From an uncultured Clostridia bacterium (GTDB lineage: Bacteria > Bacillota > Clostridia > TANB77 > CAG-508), in assembly GCA_944388795.1 (NCBI GenBank), contig CALXKD010000001.1, positions 16,084 to 80,083 of the forward strand: DNA of 64,000 nt, read 5' to 3'. This document shows positions 32,830 through 60,862 of the stretch, piece by piece; positions within the stretch are counted from its first letter, which is position 1, and the number at the start of each line of letters is the position of its first letter. Made by a program: the position numbers and the translations under genes. The notes below the pieces were generated by a model, which saw only the letters and a program-made list of their open reading frames with translations, did not search any database and was not told the DNA's origin.

Positions 32830-33303
32830 ATGGAATATAAAGATATTAAAAAATTAATGGATGACATGGGAAATTCTAAATTAGAGGAATTAGAAATTGA
32901 ATTTCCAGATGGTGTAAAAATTAGTATGAAAAAAAGTGAAAAAAGAGAAGTTATTGTAGAGCCACATGTGATAGAAGCAGGTGCACCAATTTCTGTTCCT
33001 GTTGTAAAACCACAAGAAGAAAAGGGAATTGTTGCTGTAGAAGATAAGGAAAATAAAAAAGAAGAAAACTATAAAGTGATTAAATCACCAATGGTAGGAA
33101 CTTTTTATGCAAGTTCAGCACCAGATAAAGATCCATATGTAAAAGTAGGAGATAAAATCTCAAAAGGGCAAGTTGTATGTATTGTAGAAGCTATGAAATT
33201 AATGAATGAAATTGAATCAGAATTTGATGGCGAAGTTGTAGAAATTTGTGTAAAAAATGAAGATGTTGTAGAATATGGTACACCATTATTTAAAATTAAA
33301 TAA
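32830..33303 (+). CDS. accB: Biotin carboxyl carrier protein of acetyl-CoA carboxylase
   Basis: EAMKLMNEI biotinyl-lysine motif. Confidence 0.9.
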   Translation: MEYKDIKKLMDDMGNSKLEELEIEFPDGVKISMKKSEKREVIVEPHVIEAGAPISVPVVKPQEEKGIVAVEDKENKKEENYKVIKSPMVGTFYASSAPDKDPYVKVGDKISKGQVVCIVEAMKLMNEIESEFDGEVVEICVKNEDVVEYGTPLFKIK

Positions 33304-33339
33304 TGTCCAATTTGGGACGTTTCTGTTTGAGACATTTTT
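33304..33339 (+). repeat. Stop-proximal 36-nt element, copy 2, directly after the accB stop
   Basis: tgtccaatttgggacgtttctgtttgagacattttt. Confidence 0.7.
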
Positions 33340-34067: not shown

Positions 34068-35159
34068 ATGAAAACAAAAGAAAACAAAGGAATTACATTA
34101 ATTGCATTAGTAATTACAATTATTGTTTTATTAATTTTAGCGGGAGTAAGTATTGCAACCTTAACGGGAGAAAATGGAATCCTAACAAGAGCAAGTGATG
34201 CAGATGTAGAAACAAGAGCAGCAAGTGTAGAAGAAAGAAAAAATTTATGGAAAACAGAGAAACAAACAGATAATTATGTAGGAGAAAATACAGCACAAAC
34301 ATTAGAAGAGTTATTAGATGATTTAGAAGAAGAAGATTTAATAACAGGAGAAGAAAGAACAAAAATAAAAGAAACAGGACATGTAGTAATCGGAAGTAAA
34401 GATATTTCATTTTCAGATGGATTAACAAAAACAAGTTATACAATAACCAGTAGTTTAGATGATGTAAATTTCAATAAAATTATCACAGAAGGTGATATTG
34501 CAATAGAAAAACCAGGGTTTACAAGTTATGAAATAAAAGGGATATCTGCTAGTAAAGAAGGAGAATATGTAACAAGTGGAAGTGTAGCAGGAAAAAGTGG
34601 AAACTTAGAAATAGTAGGAGATATAAGTAATGCTACATTTAGATATGCATTAACAAATTTCATGCAAGGAGATGAAACCTTTTATTGTAAAGTTAATATA
34701 GATGGAGAAGAACGCTATAAAGAAATAAAGATTATTCAAGGTGATGTTGTAACATATGAAGAAGATTTTGAAGGATTCCAATATACAGGAGATTGGCAAG
34801 AGGATACAAATGAAAATTATAGTAATGGTAAAGCAAAATATGTACAGGTAACAGATAATAGTAACAAACCCACAGCATTAATAAGTAATTGTCTTGGAAG
34901 TAAAATTGATGTTATATCTAGAAGCAATCAAGAAACAACTATGATTTGGGTACGTCAGTATGATGAGAGTATGGTAATTACAAACTTATTTTATATGGAT
35001 TTTTCAGCTACAGAAGAAGATATAAATAATAAGTCAGAGTATCAATCAACATTAAGCACAGAAATCAAAAGTAATACTAAATCAATAGAATTACAGACTA
35101 GACAAAAATCAACAGGAGAAATGATATTTTATTTAGACGCAATAAGAATATATAGATAA
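34068..35159 (+). CDS. Surface protein paralog P3 (prepilin-like N-terminus KGITLIALVITIIVLLILAGVSIA)
   Basis: First ~40 aa nearly identical to P1, P2 and P4. C-terminal domain unrecognised. Confidence 0.55.
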   Translation: MKTKENKGITLIALVITIIVLLILAGVSIATLTGENGILTRASDADVETRAASVEERKNLWKTEKQTDNYVGENTAQTLEELLDDLEEEDLITGEERTKIKETGHVVIGSKDISFSDGLTKTSYTITSSLDDVNFNKIITEGDIAIEKPGFTSYEIKGISASKEGEYVTSGSVAGKSGNLEIVGDISNATFRYALTNFMQGDETFYCKVNIDGEERYKEIKIIQGDVVTYEEDFEGFQYTGDWQEDTNENYSNGKAKYVQVTDNSNKPTALISNCLGSKIDVISRSNQETTMIWVRQYDESMVITNLFYMDFSATEEDINNKSEYQSTLSTEIKSNTKSIELQTRQKSTGEMIFYLDAIRIYR

Positions 35160-57346: not shown

Positions 57347-59902
57347 ATGAAATATGTATTAAAACAAAATAGTAAACAATATGAATTTATGGGAGGAAAA
57401 GCAACTGCTTTGGCAAAAATGGGACAAGCAATTGATAATATTCCAAAGTGGTTTGTTGTGTCCTATAAGGGCTTTGATAAAGAGGAAAAAAATATAAAAG
57501 AAGAAGCAATAAAAGAAGTAGAAGAATCTTTAAAAATGTTTCCAGATGATACCTATTTTGCGATTCGTTCATCAGCAGGAAACGAGGATTCCAAAGAAAC
57601 ATCTTTTGCAGGACAATTTGATACTTTTTTATATATTCCTAAAAAAGAGGTTATCGAAAAAATAAAAGAAGTATATTTATCTGCTTTTTCAGAAAGAATT
57701 GAAACATATCGAAAAGAAAATCATATAGAAGAGGTAATGATTCCATCAGTTATTGTGCAAAAAATGGTAAAATCAGAAAAAGCAGGTGTGGCATTTGGAG
57801 CAAATCCGACTACTTCTAATATAAAAGAGATTGTCATTAATGGTGTATATGGATTAGGAAGTAGCTTAGTAGATGGTGTGGCAACAGCAGATACCTATAC
57901 CATTTTAAATGGTAAAATTACAAAAACAATAGCTAAAAAAGATTATTGTCATATTTATGTAGATGGTGAAATTAAGCAAGAAATAGTAAACGAAAAACAA
58001 AAGGATAAAGCAGTTTTAACAGATAACCAGATATTAGAAGTTAAAGAACTAGTAGAAAAAGCAAATACATTTTTTGGAAGATTTCAAGATATTGAATGGG
58101 CTTATGAAGATGGAAAGTTATACCTATTGCAATCTAGACCAATTACAACATTAGGAATAGTAAAAAATAAAGAAGAAAAGTTAAATGTATTTGACAATAG
58201 TAATATTGTAGAAAGTTATGGAGGAATTACAACCCCTTTAACATTCTCTTTTATTAGAACTGTCTATGAAAATGTATATTTAGAATTGTGTAAAATATTT
58301 CATGTAAAAGCAGAAAAAATAGAAATGAATGCACAGATGTTTAAAAACATGTTAGCTTTAATAGACGGCCGTGTGTATTATAATCTATATGGTTGGTATG
58401 GGTTACTTTCCATGTTCCCAGGATTAGGAAAAAACAAGAAATTCATGGAGCAAATGATGGGAGTAAAAGAATCTTTGCCAGATGACTTGTTTCCAGTACC
58501 ACAAGCTACATTTTATGATAAAATTGGATTGATTTCAACTGGATATGGATTATTAAAAGGATTTATAAAGATAAGAAAAATGACAGATAAATTCTATGTA
58601 AGATTGAATGAAGCATTAGAAGATAAAGACATCCAGCATATGGATTTATATGAACTACATGATTATTACTATGAATTGGAAGGAAAACTGTTACATAAAT
58701 GGGATGCACCACTAGTCAATGACTTTTTGGCAATGATTTTTTATGGACAATTGAAACAAGAATGTGAAAAATTATTTAAAGAAAATGGAAACTTGATACA
58801 TAATGATTTATTATGTGATGAAGGAAATATCATTAGTGCAGAGCCAGCGAAAAGAATTCGAGAAATGGCAGAGATTGCAAAAGATGATGAAAAACTTTTA
58901 AAATTATTAGAAAATGAAGATATGTTATATATCCAAAAAGAACTTCCTAAATATCCAGAATTTTATGAAAAAATACAAGCATATTTAGATAAATTTTCAG
59001 ATAGATGTTTGCAGGAGTTAAAATTAGAAACATTAACATTAAAAGATAATCCTATTAGCTTATATCATTCAATATTGACATTTGCAAGAAGAATGCAAAA
59101 AACAAAAGTAAATGCATTAGATTCTGTAGAAGCTAGAAAACAGGCAGAAAGAAAAGTAAAACAAATTTTAAAGTTTAAGCCATTGGAAAAAGCTAAATTT
59201 AACTTTTTATTAAAACAAGCAAGATATACAGTAAAAAATAGAGAAAATCTTAGGTTTGAAAGAACAAGACTTTTTGGAAGAGTAAGAGAAATCTTTTTAA
59301 GAATAGGATATATATTAACTTCTTTAAATGTTATAGAAGAAAAAAGAGACATATTTTATTTAGAAGTAGATGAAATTTTATACTATATCGATGGAAAATC
59401 TACGACCAATAATTTGAAAGATTTAATTGCGATACGAAAGAAAGAGTATGAAAGATATAAGGAAACTAATCCAGATGAAAGATTTTACACTTATGGAGCA
59501 GTAAATATAGGAAATAACTTTAAAAAGGAAATAGAAGTTCACGCAGATAAAACACATATAGATAAGATAAAAGATGAAAAAGAAACTTTAAAAGGAATTG
59601 GAGCATCACCAGGAAGAATTAGTGGACGAGTAAAAGTAATAGATAATCCGGCAAATGCAAAATTAGAACAAGGAGAAATTTTAGTTGCTGAGTATACAGA
59701 TCCGGGTTGGATTATGCTATTTCCGGCTGCAAGTGGAATTTTAGTAGAAAGGGGAAGTTTATTATCTCATTCAGCAATTGTTTCAAGAGAACTTGGTATA
59801 CCTGCAGTAGTAGGAATTACAGGATTACTGGATAATATAAAAACCGGTGATATAGTGGAATTAGATGGAACAACAGGCATTGTAAGAAAAATGTCCAATT
59901 AG
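57347..59902 (+). CDS. PEP-utilising phosphotransferase with rifampin-phosphotransferase-like architecture: N-terminal PPDK_N ATP-grasp, central domain, C-terminal phospho-His swivel domain
   Basis: N-terminus MGGKATALAKMGQ...IPKWFVV. C-terminus ERGSLLSHSAIVSRELGIPAVVG (PEP-utilisers motif). No TIM-barrel PEP/pyruvate domain. 851 aa. Confidence 0.7.
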   Translation: MKYVLKQNSKQYEFMGGKATALAKMGQAIDNIPKWFVVSYKGFDKEEKNIKEEAIKEVEESLKMFPDDTYFAIRSSAGNEDSKETSFAGQFDTFLYIPKKEVIEKIKEVYLSAFSERIETYRKENHIEEVMIPSVIVQKMVKSEKAGVAFGANPTTSNIKEIVINGVYGLGSSLVDGVATADTYTILNGKITKTIAKKDYCHIYVDGEIKQEIVNEKQKDKAVLTDNQILEVKELVEKANTFFGRFQDIEWAYEDGKLYLLQSRPITTLGIVKNKEEKLNVFDNSNIVESYGGITTPLTFSFIRTVYENVYLELCKIFHVKAEKIEMNAQMFKNMLALIDGRVYYNLYGWYGLLSMFPGLGKNKKFMEQMMGVKESLPDDLFPVPQATFYDKIGLISTGYGLLKGFIKIRKMTDKFYVRLNEALEDKDIQHMDLYELHDYYYELEGKLLHKWDAPLVNDFLAMIFYGQLKQECEKLFKENGNLIHNDLLCDEGNIISAEPAKRIREMAEIAKDDEKLLKLLENEDMLYIQKELPKYPEFYEKIQAYLDKFSDRCLQELKLETLTLKDNPISLYHSILTFARRMQKTKVNALDSVEARKQAERKVKQILKFKPLEKAKFNFLLKQARYTVKNRENLRFERTRLFGRVREIFLRIGYILTSLNVIEEKRDIFYLEVDEILYYIDGKSTTNNLKDLIAIRKKEYERYKETNPDERFYTYGAVNIGNNFKKEIEVHADKTHIDKIKDEKETLKGIGASPGRISGRVKVIDNPANAKLEQGEILVAEYTDPGWIMLFPAASGILVERGSLLSHSAIVSRELGIPAVVGITGLLDNIKTGDIVELDGTTGIVRKMSN

Positions 59903-59926
59903 GGACGTTTCTGTCTGGACATTTTT
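59893..59926 (+). repeat. Stop-proximal 36-nt element, copy 3; overlaps the last codons of the phosphotransferase gene
   Basis: tgtccaattagggacgtttctgtctggacattttt; the stop codon TAG is inside the element. Confidence 0.7.
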
Positions 59927-60067
59927 CAAAATAAAATAATTAAAAAACGGATATAAAAATGATAAAGGACATACCGAAAAACAAAAATATCTAATTTGGT
60001 GTGTCCTTGTCTTATATGTAGGGAAAATTTTATGTATGGTAAAGATAAAAGTTGTTTTTTATAATTT

Positions 60068-60103
60068 AAAAATGTCCCAATAGGAAACGTCCCCAATTGG
60101 ACA
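60068..60103 (-). repeat. Stop-proximal 36-nt element, copy 4, directly after the stop of the DUF4130-like gene; convergent with copy 3
   Basis: Minus strand tgtccaattggggacgtttcctattgggacattt. Confidence 0.7.
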
Positions 60104-60862
60104 TTATGGTTCTTCAATTAAATCTTGCCAATATTTTTTAGGCATAAATTGCATTTGACATCTAGCATTTTTTCTTTCTTGTATGGCAATGGTTTTGAAA
60201 AATAATTTCCAAAGTTCTTGGTATTTTTGTTCTTCTTCAGTAACATCAGGTATTGTTAAATTGGTGCTATCAATGATTTTGTATTCTTGTGAGTTATATA
60301 AAAAACAAATATTTCTGTTCTTATCGTGAATGATAAAGTTTTGTGTAGGTAGTCTTTTAATAAAGTGATGTCCTAAAGGTTCTATAATATTGTTATCTGG
60401 GTGAATAGAGGCATAATACAAATTTTTTCCTATTTCCATAAATCGAAGTAATCCTTTTAACTTATGGCATTCTGATAAAGCTCTTTTTCTCATATTGATA
60501 ACAGAAAAGACATAGGAAATAGTAAGCATAGTGTTAATTTTAGGTCCGATGTCAAATCCATCACATAAATATTTTAGAATTTTAATTTCTTTCTCTTTTC
60601 CATCTGATAAAAAAGCATAAAAACTATTATATAGAGCTTCATAGCAAATATTTTTATTAATTCCTTCAAAAACACGTTTTGCCTTTTCATAATTGGTATT
60701 TATATATTGTGTTTTATCTAAAAAATTTTGTATATATTCCTCTTCTGAAACAATTTTTTGTGGCAATGTTTTATGAGAATAGCTCTCAAAAACAATGGTT
60801 AATAATCCATCAAATGTACCATCATATAAATAGGTTGTGTTTACAAGCTTCCAGTTAGACAT
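60104..60862 (-). CDS. Probable DNA metabolism protein (TIGR03915/DUF4130-like; uracil-DNA-glycosylase-superfamily relative), partner of the radical SAM protein
   Basis: 252 aa. Overlaps and is co-directional with the upstream radical SAM gene. This pairing is characteristic of the family. Confidence 0.5.
   Translation of the reverse strand: MSNWKLVNTTYLYDGTFDGLLTIVFESYSHKTLPQKIVSEEEYIQNFLDKTQYINTNYEKAKRVFEGINKNICYEALYNSFYAFLSDGKEKEIKILKYLCDGFDIGPKINTMLTISYVFSVINMRKRALSECHKLKGLLRFMEIGKNLYYASIHPDNNIIEPLGHHFIKRLPTQNFIIHDKNRNICFLYNSQEYKIIDSTNLTIPDVTEEEQKYQELWKLFFKTIAIQERKNARCQMQFMPKKYWQDLIEEP

Follow-up and report, generated by a model that had tools for sequence, protein, structure and literature searches.

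Four Copies of a 36-nt Unit at Gene Ends

The window, by which we mean the full 64,000-nt stretch under study, contains exactly four copies of a 36-nt unit matching T-GTCCAATTNGGGACGTTTC-(5–7 nt)-G(G/A)GACA-TTTTT, a density of approximately one copy per 16 kb. They lie at the 3′ ends of genes whose identities were confirmed by Pfam. Copy 1 (13746–13781, minus strand, 61 bits) begins at the base following the TAA stop codon of dapB (13782–13784). It is placed between this stop codon and an ordinary strong intrinsic terminator, made of a 15-bp stem and a T-run (13686–13718, minus strand), 28 nt downstream of the unit, which is thus not needed for termination at this site. Copy 2, an AATTTG variant (33304–33339, plus strand), starts at the base after the TAA stop of accB (33301–33303) and ends 25 nt upstream of the fabZ start (33365), in an operon-internal position. 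Copy 4 (60068–60103, minus strand) likewise starts at the base after the TAA stop (60104–60106) of a DUF4130 gene. Copy 3, an AATTAG variant (59892–59927, plus strand), differs from these three in providing the stop codon itself: its internal TAG (59900–59902) terminates a gene encoding a PPDK_N/PEP-utilizers (kinase) protein. The C-terminus of this protein reads ...RKMSN*, the last three codons (MSN) being element sequence. An earlier sequence-only reading had proposed four elements fused to or overlapping stop codons, and the ORF ends bear this out; its positions were accurate to within one base, copy 3 having been placed at 59893–59926.

Copies 3 and 4 are inverted relative to each other across a 140-nt spacer (59928–60067) that contains a further hairpin, as had been noted. 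This central hairpin (59965–60008, AAGGACATACC...GGTGTGTCCTT) folds at −20 kcal/mol (z = −5.2) and, judging from this predicted fold, is likely a bidirectional terminator of the convergent genes. When the whole 225-nt region from copy 3 to copy 4 is folded, both units pair with each other (−71.8 kcal/mol, z = −8.4). The pair has the same orientation in 10 of 10 independent assemblies of the window species.

A 20-mer search of the window allowing three mismatches returned the four copies only, against an expectation of 0 in shuffled sequence. A covariance model run on the window with filters off recovered the same four with E values of 1e-10 to 6e-14; the next match (E = 0.14) falls on copy 3, on its reverse strand.

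Structure and Sequence of the Unit

The unit is an imperfect palindrome with the 5′ arm TGTCCAA and the 3′ arm TTG(G/A)GACA, followed by a T-run. The stem TGTCC/GGACA described previously is present but too short: the outer stem, TGTCCAA/TTG(G|A)GACA, comprises 7 bp with a one-base bulge. The conserved loop, TTGGGGACGTTTCYNT, is 15–17 nt long and not approximately 25 nt as first described; its conservation holds in most copies, but in L137/L138 the loop motif has decayed while the arms TGTCCAA/TTGGACA and the T-run are kept. At the RNA level, an outer stem of 7–9 bp is followed by U5, and RNAfold predicts −6 to −15 kcal/mol with the stem formed in most variants. Pairing is also possible between the stop-codon purines and the initial U's of the U-run. 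In the subfamilies TGTCTCA...TGAGACA and TGTCCCA...TGGGACA, compensatory changes restore perfect 7-bp stems; this covariation is based on a few subfamilies from two or three genomes. The 5′ boundary of the 170 sampled copies is sharp, at T(−1), and their 20-nt cores are conserved to near identity; conservation of the 5′ half is overstated, as the search pattern fixed this half in most sampled copies.

Like an intrinsic terminator, the unit combines a hairpin with a U-run, in sense orientation and downstream of a gene. Its 15–17 nt loop exceeds the short loop of 3–8 nt of canonical terminators, which counts against a terminator role. A terminator scan called hairpin 1 in copies 1 and 2, corresponding in copy 1 to AATGTCC-AATTGG-GGACGTT with a T-rich tail. 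The standard scan of positions 59500–60500 called no terminator.

Several other functions for the sequence were considered and rejected. A small ORF (TAATG...MSNWGRFCLGHF) is interrupted at codon 4 in copy 3, indels in the 3′ half shift its frame and the peptides are not conserved. No promoter is carried by the unit, as −35 and −10 boxes are consistent in neither direction and TTGGGA-16-TATAAT occurs only where the flank supplies the −10 box. The palindrome CCAATTGG is not maintained as a DNA site, being broken without compensation by the AGTTGG, ATTTGG, TTTTGG, and AATTAG variants. The DNA encoding the N-terminus MSNW of the DUF4130 protein (ATGTCTAACTGG) matches the unit at 10 of 12 positions, a coincidence and not a fifth partial copy.

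A Repeat Family of Uncultured Gut Clostridia

The unit was found in at least 41 species-level metagenome-assembled genomes (MAGs) of uncultured low-GC gut Clostridia, in more than 118 matching regions. Sampling 8-kb blocks around copies yielded 170 unit copies across approximately 1 Mb of loci. Copies number in the dozens per genome, and at least 10–18 strict copies were counted in single MAGs. Numerous copies, most of them with the loop, are the opposite of the few isolated or loopless copies that would have spoken against a specific element. Searches of phage, plasmid, and viral collections gave no match to the unit, and an origin from such replicons was discarded on these grounds. A string search of the literature with the core sequence turned up no paper.

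None of the 4227 Rfam families, including gut-2 (RF02990), matched the window at the gathering threshold, and among 16 loci compared with Rfam only a T-box leader, and no unit copy, was detected at threshold. Permissive thresholds gave only generic long-hairpin (plant miRNA) matches and a weak gut-2 hairpin match. In this local match, hairpin 1 aligns with the gut-2 model (guccaccAAUUGGgguggac vs AAUGUCCAAUUGGGGACGUU) and has the same CC-AAUUGG-GG loop closure; it is the best sub-threshold bacterial match, scoring 11 bits over 20 of 48 model positions (gathering score, 39.8), and stands as an unverified lead.

Placement at In-Frame Stop Codons

Among 162 termini sampled, 103 face the 3′ end of a gene. 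Thirty-four of these 103 are at offset 0 from the stop codon, seven more use the internal TAG and 79 fall between −11 and +12 nt of the stop. Ordinary terminator-like hairpins are placed more loosely, with 9 of 116 at offset 0 and a median of approximately 15 nt. Cramped intergenic space does not account for stop adjacency, since the enrichment remains where 100–200 nt or more are free: with at least 100 nt of free intergenic space, 13 of 44 gene-3′-facing ends are exactly at the stop, for 0.22 expected. Sense copies therefore have their 5′ end at, or a few bases from, an in-frame stop codon far above chance.

The stops found at offset 0 (TAA 23, TAG 6, TGA 5) are in proportion to genomic use (519/186/115). 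Only 2 of 128 other termini are preceded by a stop-like triplet, which rules out a DNA target motif TRR|T. The association is thus with in-frame stop codons of any type and not with a DNA triplet. The proposal that the element targets stop codons stands as a statistical statement of this kind, mechanism aside, and does not extend to a DNA triplet. Nor are copies always adjacent to a stop: beside the third of gene-3′-facing termini at offset 0, antisense units and other positions exist. In co-directional regions we counted 37 sense and 17 antisense solo units, some antisense units being found just upstream of ribosome-binding sites. Divergent regions rarely contain units (8 of 108 classified). 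Many other solo copies are operon-internal, like copy 2. A strong terminator inside an operon would be harmful, which counts against the terminator-like role that we favor below.

Inverted Pairs and Composite Elements

The sampled units comprise 91 solo units and 40 inverted pairs separated by 62–499 bp. In the pairs, the 5′ ends always point outward and the interiors are heterogeneous. The L004 pair encloses a promoter and a T-box leader, and one unit lies between a T-box leader and its gene. Some composite elements present in several copies are also bounded by units as terminal inverted repeats; their interiors are common to non-orthologous sites in four MAGs and occur twice within one MAG. 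Two families were distinguished, one of approximately 290 bp (L013, L075, L044, and L054) and one of approximately 365 bp (L017, L063, L110, and L066); in both, the interiors are shared and the flanks differ.

Terminal inverted repeats surrounding a short, non-coding, multi-copy body are the hallmark of MITEs, and the composites have both. A further MITE feature, a flanking target-site duplication, is not seen. With five boundary definitions and lengths of 2–9, direct repeats of at least 3 nt did not exceed chance expectation at any of the five offsets among 42 pairs, and three comparisons of filled with empty sites showed no duplication. A duplication of TAA, hinted at by the accB site, was dismissed, as copies after TGA or TAG stops still read on ...ATGTAAAG. 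HUH/Y1 transposition leaves no target duplication, and in this respect the unit resembles REP elements.

A tblastn search of the sampled loci and the window with an approximate IS200 TnpA query gave nothing at E < 5. The approximately 1 Mb of loci contains neither an IS200-like ORF nor a multi-copy ORF family, none of the inverted pairs encloses an ORF, and inspection of the ORFs on small contigs revealed no transposase. No cognate autonomous IS with unit termini was present in the 8-kb blocks of the sampled loci. The Transposase_31 gene beside DUF4130 in L123/L124 was set aside, no unit being nearby. As no mobilizing enzyme was found in these loci, mobility is deduced only from presence/absence patterns and from the composite copies.

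Gain and Loss between Relatives

Orthologous sites were compared, as first proposed with the description of the element, and copies proved to be present or absent among relatives. At a site that in the window is a 29-nt operon junction, L060 carries a pair of 163 nt directly abutting a stop codon. The window likewise lacks, at the orthologous sites, the copy of L059 and the pair of L009. The accB copy is missing in L060, and lineage-specific versions of it occur in the contigs of six relatives, the junction being occupied in six of the seven lineages sampled. At the 3′ end of the DUF4130 gene, a copy is present in the closest relatives only; a relative with 96% identity has a loop variant at the position of copy 4, which other hairpins occupy in more distant relatives. 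These sequence comparisons show that related genomes have gained and lost copies, and that no target-site duplication accompanies such changes. Some of the "empty" sites may be losses and not ancestral states.

A Probable REP- and TRIT-Like Family

On balance, we consider it probable that the unit is a lineage-specific interspersed palindromic repeat family, similar to REP/BIME/REPIN and TRIT elements, acting as a terminator-like 3′ hairpin. A REP/BIME-like repeat was among the options of the sequence-only reading, and it is the one favored by the clade-wide distribution, the inverted pairs, the presence/absence patterns and the association with stops. Like REPs, which are imperfect palindromes of approximately 20–40 nt with many extragenic copies, the unit is short, intergenic, numerous and frequently arranged as inverted doublets (Bertels and Rainey 2011, PMC3116915; PMC3337134; PMC5581495). 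It shares with them vertical persistence in a lineage, turnover within genomes and a presumed mobilization in trans, REPINs being inverted REP pairs mobilized in this manner (PMC3116915, PMC3337134). REP/RAYT systems are characterized by a single-copy RAYT (Y1/HUH transposase) gene that the repeats flank, and by inverted doublets with a short spacer as the replicating unit. In the sampled loci, no RAYT or IS200-like gene was found. Moreover, the spacing of unit pairs is variable and often long, their interior can be host regulatory DNA (T-box), the hairpins are short, with stems of 4–7 bp, and the link to stop codons is nucleotide-precise. The unit thus resembles an already known type of repeat, from which its unusually precise placement sets it apart.

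Under this explanation, the RNA hairpin and U-run would serve the upstream gene either as an intrinsic terminator of moderate strength or as a hairpin protecting its 3′ end, and paired units would form an extended double-stranded stem by which transcripts are insulated or processed. Selection on such a host-level role may retain the arms and the T-run. The conserved loop would be recognized by a putative trans-acting protein, candidates being an HUH/RAYT-like or recombinase-like mobilizing enzyme that makes no duplication, or a terminator-binding factor as suggested for TRIT. Exact placement at stops might result from selection, or from erosion of the junction, read out at translation, and not from a DNA target motif.

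Duplication of a TA target and a fixed core characterize the Correia repeat-enclosed elements (CREEs). By contrast, the unit shows no duplication at any offset, and most of its occurrences are solo 36-nt units; the interiors of its pairs fall into several unrelated families or into none. The likeness to the CREE/NEMIS elements of Neisseria and to other MITEs is that of small, non-coding, gene-adjacent elements with terminal inverted repeats (PMC2649163; PMC10969869). Such elements can form long RNA hairpins on which RNase III acts, can end or promote transcription, and vary in presence among strains (PMC2649163; PMC10969869).

Alternative Explanations

A less probable account, to which we nevertheless give appreciable weight, is that of a host cis-regulatory module of the TRIT type that is not mobile. 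TRIT, the Tuberculosis Rho-independent terminator motif of Mycobacterium, is a sequence-conserved palindromic motif that occupies a very narrow range of positions around stops (Gardner et al. 2011, PMC3152330). Its center lies at approximately −8 from the stop, compared with +10 to +20 for ordinary terminators (PMC3152330). Both are clade-limited palindromic hairpins conserved in sequence and structure, narrowly positioned at gene ends and present in approximately 100 or more copies per genome, and in both the conservation suggests an extra factor; the authors of the TRIT study proposed a factor binding the motif. The two have no sequence homology and belong to different phyla, so that the likeness is one in kind only. 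The unit also has a clear U-run, begins at +1 and not inside the ORF, forms inverted pairs 62–499 bp apart, bounds composites, and shows documented insertion/loss polymorphism.

As a host module, the unit would be a specialized terminator or 3′-UTR hairpin whose loop binds a dedicated host factor or senses the terminating ribosome. The 5′ arm falls inside the approximately 12 nt occupied by a ribosome at the stop codon; masking by a translating ribosome could lead to read-through, and untranslated RNA to termination. Local duplication or gene conversion would generate the copies, which selection would then keep. Placement at in-frame stops whatever the codon fits such a translation-level readout, as do the 79 of 103 gene-3′-facing termini close to the stop, and conditional termination would make operon-internal copies (accB|fabZ) tolerable. 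The occupancy of the accB junction in most lineages sampled and the TRIT precedent are also in its favor. It fits poorly with the antisense units upstream of ribosome-binding sites, with the unit between the T-box leader and its gene, and with units ending multi-copy composites at unrelated sites. Pairs are several-fold above independent placement (40 pairs vs 91 solos), and at one old site the loop has decayed with the arms kept, the opposite of what loop binding predicts there.

It is rather unlikely that the unit is placed or tolerated only at the first base after any in-frame stop, its position being set by translation and not by DNA sequence. In one variant, the unit would be a genome-wide ribosome-sensing intrinsic terminator: the ribosome terminating at the stop would mask its 5′ arm, which would enforce polarity without Rho. 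In another, a mobile element would home to the ribosome-free boundary of the transcript, for instance to single-stranded DNA past the stop. In both, the conserved loop might be the handle for a dedicated putative protein. If true, such placement would be a new principle for positioning terminators or mobile elements.

We regard as improbable the possibility that inverted units are crossover sites at which a site-specific recombinase or homologous recombination inverts or exchanges the enclosed intergenic regulatory segment, in the manner of an inverton or shufflon. The interior of the L103 pair is inverted relative to L028 with conserved flanks (score 23 vs 3, reached by 0 of 2000 shuffles), L063 and L075 share both flanks with unrelated interiors, and in L004 a promoter and T-box leader are enclosed. 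However, this inversion, which is between species, is the only one among approximately five informative orthologous pairs, and occasional RecA-mediated exchange of 36–44-bp inverted repeats would explain the single case. Both orientations within a population, which define invertons, were not observed. At the window pair, neither the ten assemblies, uniform in orientation, nor a search of JGI metagenomes, which gave no inverted junction, provided evidence of active inversion; a switch between these convergent genes has no obvious use. Solo units, moreover, are the majority.

A DNA uptake signal for natural transformation, co-opted into terminators like the DUS/USS of Neisseria and Pasteurellaceae, is very improbable. 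The resemblance lies in sequence conservation inside terminator-like hairpins, which often occur downstream of genes as inverted pairs (PMC1852404), and several window proteins have prepilin-like N-termini, judged by eye alone. DUS/USS are 9–11 nt long and generally number 1,000 or more per genome (Kingsford et al. 2007, PMC1852404), against 36 nt and approximately one copy per 16 kb in the window for the unit. Its layout is also structured, with a 5′ end sharply defined at stop codons. Uptake sequences are not known from this phylum.

Finally, although terminators in these compact genomes often begin near stop codons, chance likeness of ordinary unrelated terminators is refuted by the four window matches for none expected and by near-identical 20-nt cores in 170 copies from at least 41 genomes.

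Significance for Annotation and Gene Expression

After the mycobacterial TRIT, this is the second independent case of a sequence-conserved hairpin locked to stop codons. Comparing the two makes it testable why lineages standardize their gene-end hairpins and which protein reads them. The MAGs carrying the unit represent abundant yet uncultured gut Clostridia, for which a 36-nt landmark can aid the annotation of gene 3′ ends, operon boundaries, false C-terminal extensions and assembly breaks. Insertion into operons and the bracketing of regulatory regions such as the T-box make it plausible that the unit contributes to differences in expression among closely related gut strains. Proteins themselves are altered by the element: the kinase of the window gains three element-encoded residues, and in a relative dapB acquires an 11-residue tail.

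The Repeat Unit in the Window and in Other Clostridia

The 20-mer TGTCCAATTGGGGACGTTTC, searched with up to three mismatches across the whole window, identified four 36-nt units and no others, and none was obtained in 100 shuffles. The same four copies were recovered by an ungapped weight-matrix scan and by a covariance model without filters (E = 1e-10 to 6e-14); the next match of that model (E = 0.14) falls on copy 3 again, read in reverse. According to the ORF tables, the TAA stop codons of dapB, accB, and a DUF4130 gene are the three bases preceding the first T of copy 1 (13746–13781, minus strand), copy 2 (33304–33339, plus strand), and copy 4 (60068–60103, minus strand), respectively. Copy 3 (59892–59927, plus strand) overlaps its gene: a TAG within the unit's AATTAG variant ends a PPDK_N/PEP-utilizers protein of 851 aa, whose C-terminus (...RKMSN*) has its MSN* (59891–59902) encoded by the unit. 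Pfam confirmed the identities of the four host genes and of the neighbors dapA and fabZ. A spacer of 140 nt, with a strong hairpin at its center (−20 kcal/mol, z = −5.2), separates copies 3 and 4, which are inverted relative to each other. The stop-hugging repeat, like the facing pair with its hairpin-bearing spacer, both first proposed from the sequence alone, is therefore real.

A scan of species-representative genomes with GTCCAATTNGGGACGTTTC matched at least 118 regions. Among the matches listed, 116 belong to 41 assemblies whose titles read uncultured Clostridia, Clostridium, Eubacteriales, or Bacillota and which derive from the gut of chickens, humans, and other hosts; many copies thus exist outside the window. 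The two others, in an archaeal and an alphaproteobacterial MAG, have only the 19-mer in common with the unit and look like chance matches. The unit was not found in 50,697 phage records, 72,556 plasmids, or IMG/VR; in the window and 16 sampled loci it falls under every Rfam gathering score, and its core string does not occur in indexed papers.

Together, the window and the loci sampled from MAGs of other gut Clostridia (L numbers; G+C content of 28.6%) contain 170 copies, with the consensus T-GTCCAATTGGGGACGTTTC-YNTTT-G(G/A)GACA-TTTTT, often followed by ATGTAAAG. The 5' boundary is sharp: a T occupies position −1 in 164 of the 170 copies, and the composition upstream is that of the background. 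Because the search pattern itself dictated the first 20 nt, their invariance partly reflects ascertainment. With the 3' half as anchor, the canonical 5' half was recovered in 81 of 99 cases, and with one to three changes in about 14 more.

Structure of the Unit

Base pairing between the two arms, TGTCCAA and TTG(G/A)GACA, gives a seven-pair stem in which a single base is bulged; the TTGGACA variant pairs perfectly. Covariation is seen as compensatory stem changes in a few subfamilies: TGTCTCA...TGAGACA (L108; TGTCTA...GAGACA in L048) and TGTCCCA...TGGGACA (L083) restore perfect seven-pair stems by changes on both sides. RNAfold predicts the outer stem, at −6 to −15 kcal/mol (z = −1.8 to −5.6), in the majority of variants, often extended by stop-codon purines pairing with the first U's of the U-run. 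For the GAGACA variants, an alternative 5' hairpin, (AA)UGUCC-AAUUGG-GGACG(UU), is predicted, and a terminator scan scored it as terminator-like in copies 1 and 2. Among variant copies its GTCC/GGAC arms are constant, and the six-base loop drifts without compensation.

The terminator-like hairpin of the sequence-only reading stands as far as the stem and the T-run are concerned, but the outer loop of 15–17 nt exceeds that of a textbook terminator and a standard terminator scan called nothing in the region of copies 3 and 4. If transcribed through, this pair is predicted to fold arm to arm (−71.8 kcal/mol, z = −8.4). A classical 15-bp terminator lies 28 nt past copy 1. Such a backup is present at only 6 of 37 stop-adjacent sense solos (single units), a frequency close to the ~15% that a looser scan gave across all gene ends.

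Solos, Pairs, and Composite Elements

We distinguished 91 solos and 40 inverted pairs, 62–499 bp end to end with 5' ends outward; the reverse arrangement is essentially absent from the sampled loci. Pairs are several-fold commoner than independent placement would predict at the observed density of about one unit per 16 kb. Their interiors are heterogeneous, and none contains an ORF in the sampled loci. Two interior families recur among unrelated flanks in several genomes, and twice in one MAG: family A, of ~290 bp (L013 3786–4077, L075 7241–7533, L044 120–408, and L054 6216–6510), and family B, of ~365 bp (L017 3214–3582, L063 4287–4651, L110 632–1005, and L066 6775–7049). They behave like composite MITE-like elements with the unit as terminal inverted repeat. 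Both families, which have no Rfam match, are quasi-palindromic, with an inward TATAAT-like box in each arm (AAAATACTATATAAT or AAATATAGAATATAA) and, at the center, a long hairpin whose sequence varies by copy with pairing kept. They might encode convergent small RNAs.

In L004 (5744–6242), an inverted pair brackets host regulatory DNA. The left unit begins directly after the upstream gene's TAA, with a promoter (TTGCAA-17-TATAAT, with TG) next; the pair encloses a complete T-box leader (RF00230, 97 bits), and the right unit has the T-box terminator on one side and the ribosome-binding site of the downstream gene on the other.

Association with Stop Codons

Among 103 unit termini facing a gene 3' end, 34 start on the base after the stop codon, the internal TAG of the AATTAG variant serves as stop at 7 more, in sampled genes, and some 79 fall between −11 and +12 relative to the stop. 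An expectation of 16.8, obtained by placing termini uniformly in the gap that remains beside the element, was discarded as circular. Where at least 100 nt of free space is available, 13 of 44 termini are at offset 0 for 0.22 expected; with at least 200 nt, 7 of 24 for 0.07 expected. The proposed tie to stop codons is thus strongly supported, as a statistical association. Terminator-like hairpins of the ordinary kind are placed more loosely in these sequences, with 9 of 116 at offset 0 and a median of ~15 nt from the stop. Termini facing a gene 5' end stop 12–130 nt before the start codon, leaving the ribosome-binding site intact. Divergent intergenic regions are depleted in units (8 of 108 classified), and co-directional regions contain 37 sense versus 17 antisense solos.

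The abutted stops (23 TAA, 6 TAG, and 5 TGA) follow genomic proportions (519/186/115), and away from stops only 2 of 128 termini are preceded by a stop-like triplet. A DNA-reading enzyme would be blind to the difference between in-frame stops and other TRR triplets, and placement therefore reflects something that is read out through translation or selection. We infer three candidate reasons for its base-exactness. Function may require the 5' arm to lie inside the footprint of the terminating ribosome, or insertion may be directed at the boundary between translated and untranslated sequence. Alternatively, a deletion-prone 5' junction may erode as far as the stop codon, where selection would put an end to it; this would fit the 13 nt missing from L015 and the observation that spacers are shorter where a site is filled. 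The erosion candidate is weakened by three insertions that look recent, at offsets 0, 0, and +4, since placement then seems near final at birth. A DNA target motif is ruled out by the 2 of 128 termini and the genomic stop-codon proportions.

Gain, Loss, and Turnover

By blastn, the window is syntenic with five loci from four related MAGs, allowing filled and empty sites to be compared. In L060, a 163-nt pair directly follows a TGA stop, where the window junction of the same two genes is only 29 nt. L059 has a unit 4 nt past a stop, preceded by two partial 12-nt 5' copies, and L009 a pair immediately after a classical terminator; the window lacks both. The dapB ORF of L015 lacks 13 nt relative to the window, stop codon included; it reads through the unit (~5241–5290) and ends in ...MEDVQLGTFLFETF*, which the unit encodes.

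On the 3' side of the DUF4130 gene, a 96%-identity relative carries the loop variant GTCCTTTTGGGGAC at the same position. At 92% DUF4130 identity, L119 (1523–1560) carries, where copy 4 would be, a hairpin with 11 perfect base pairs, AGTTGCCAAAG-AGGCACGTCCC-CTTTGGCAACT plus TTTT. This sequence, AGTTGCCAAAGAGGCACGTCCCCTTTGGCAAC-TTTT, is similar to the unit's reverse complement, with ACGTCCCC and CCAAA in common, and may be a flipped, remodeled descendant of the unit. Relatives at 87–76% have unrelated terminators and different neighboring genes.

At the accB/fabZ junction, a unit begins directly after the stop in six contigs from relatives (AccB 91–98% identical), and the site is empty only in L060. 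Each contig has its own version, including one 5' stutter and two altered loops; in L137 and L138 the GGGGACGTTTC motif is gone, with perfect arms (TGTCCAA/TTGGACA) and the T-run kept. The unit evolves faster than its flanking genes, and the loop is lost before the arms. These comparisons indicate that some sites are old or repeatedly occupied; some of the "empty" sites, at least, may reflect loss. In the 5' stutter, the first 9–12 nt of the unit (TGTCCAATTGGG) are partially repeated in tandem, once or twice, straight before a full copy (L059 6711–6735; L139/L140 863–874; also L070, L032, L046, L042, L068, L067, L025, and L081). Such a stutter could be what is left of an earlier copy that a later one overwrote in place, or result from slippage.

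Pair interiors also change. L028 (3660–3809) and L103 (4250–4399), from two species, have both flanks in common with interiors in opposite orientation (alignment score 23 inverted versus 3 direct, 48 of 69 columns identical, 23 reached in 0 of 2000 shuffles). L063 (4287–4651) and L075 (7241–7533) also have both flanks in common, with unrelated interiors, one family having replaced the other. The window pair has the same orientation in ten independent assemblies of its species, and its predicted inverted junction was absent from a JGI metagenome scan; there is no sign of ongoing switching at this pair. We read the single L028/L103 inversion as occasional recombination between 36–44-bp inverted repeats.

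No target-site duplication was detected, either as flanking direct repeats under five boundary definitions or in filled-versus-empty comparisons. In ~1 Mb of loci, neither an approximate IS200 TnpA query nor a survey of multicopy ORF families and ORFs on small contigs gave a candidate enzyme. One lineage (L123/L124, 2333–3343) carries a Transposase_31 gene (PF04754, YhgA/Rpn-like) convergent to DUF4130, with no unit nearby and hence no evident link to the repeat.

Comparison with Known Systems

We observe a family with a defined architecture, turnover without duplication, a stop-codon and strand bias, and pairing potential with few compensatory variants. All this is accounted for most simply by a REP/REPIN-type interspersed palindromic repeat, specific to this lineage, whose unit also serves as a TRIT-type hairpin at gene ends, which supports the earlier suggestion of a small mobile REP/BIME-like repeat. 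The RNA hairpin and U-run would terminate or stabilize transcripts, and the conserved loop could be the recognition handle of a putative protein, either a mobilizing enzyme or a binding factor.

The closest analogue in behavior is TRIT, a clade-restricted palindrome of 147 copies with a narrow position around −8 from stops and a suspected factor (PMC3152330); it has no sequence in common with the unit, however, and lacks pair and composite forms. REP/REPIN-RAYT systems resemble the unit in size, inverted doublets, and persistence (PMC3116915; PMC3337134; PMC5581495), but their pair geometry is different and their defining enzyme was not found in the ~1 Mb of loci. Correia elements and other MITEs resemble families A and B in their composite forms and RNA-hairpin consequences (PMC2649163; PMC10969869), but not in the target duplication that defines them. 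DUS/USS likewise place a conserved word inside terminators (PMC1852404), but differ in length and, about ten-fold or more, in density. The unit is thus REP/TRIT-like and not a new kind; what is notable is its base-exact anchoring, blind to the type of stop codon, and its interest lies in this and in the putative protein to which the conserved loop points. The gut-2 RNA (RF02990, a gut metagenome motif) has the same CC-AAUUGG-GG loop and gives, as a tentative lead, a weak 11-bit local match (gathering score 39.8) to the unit's first hairpin at 60086–60105 (minus strand).

By eye, prepilin-like N-termini (KGITLIALVITIIVLLILAG...) are found on several large proteins (window 12097–13140 and 34068–35159; L051 2610–3908), which suggests that genes resembling those for type IV pilins or pseudopilins are numerous in this clade.
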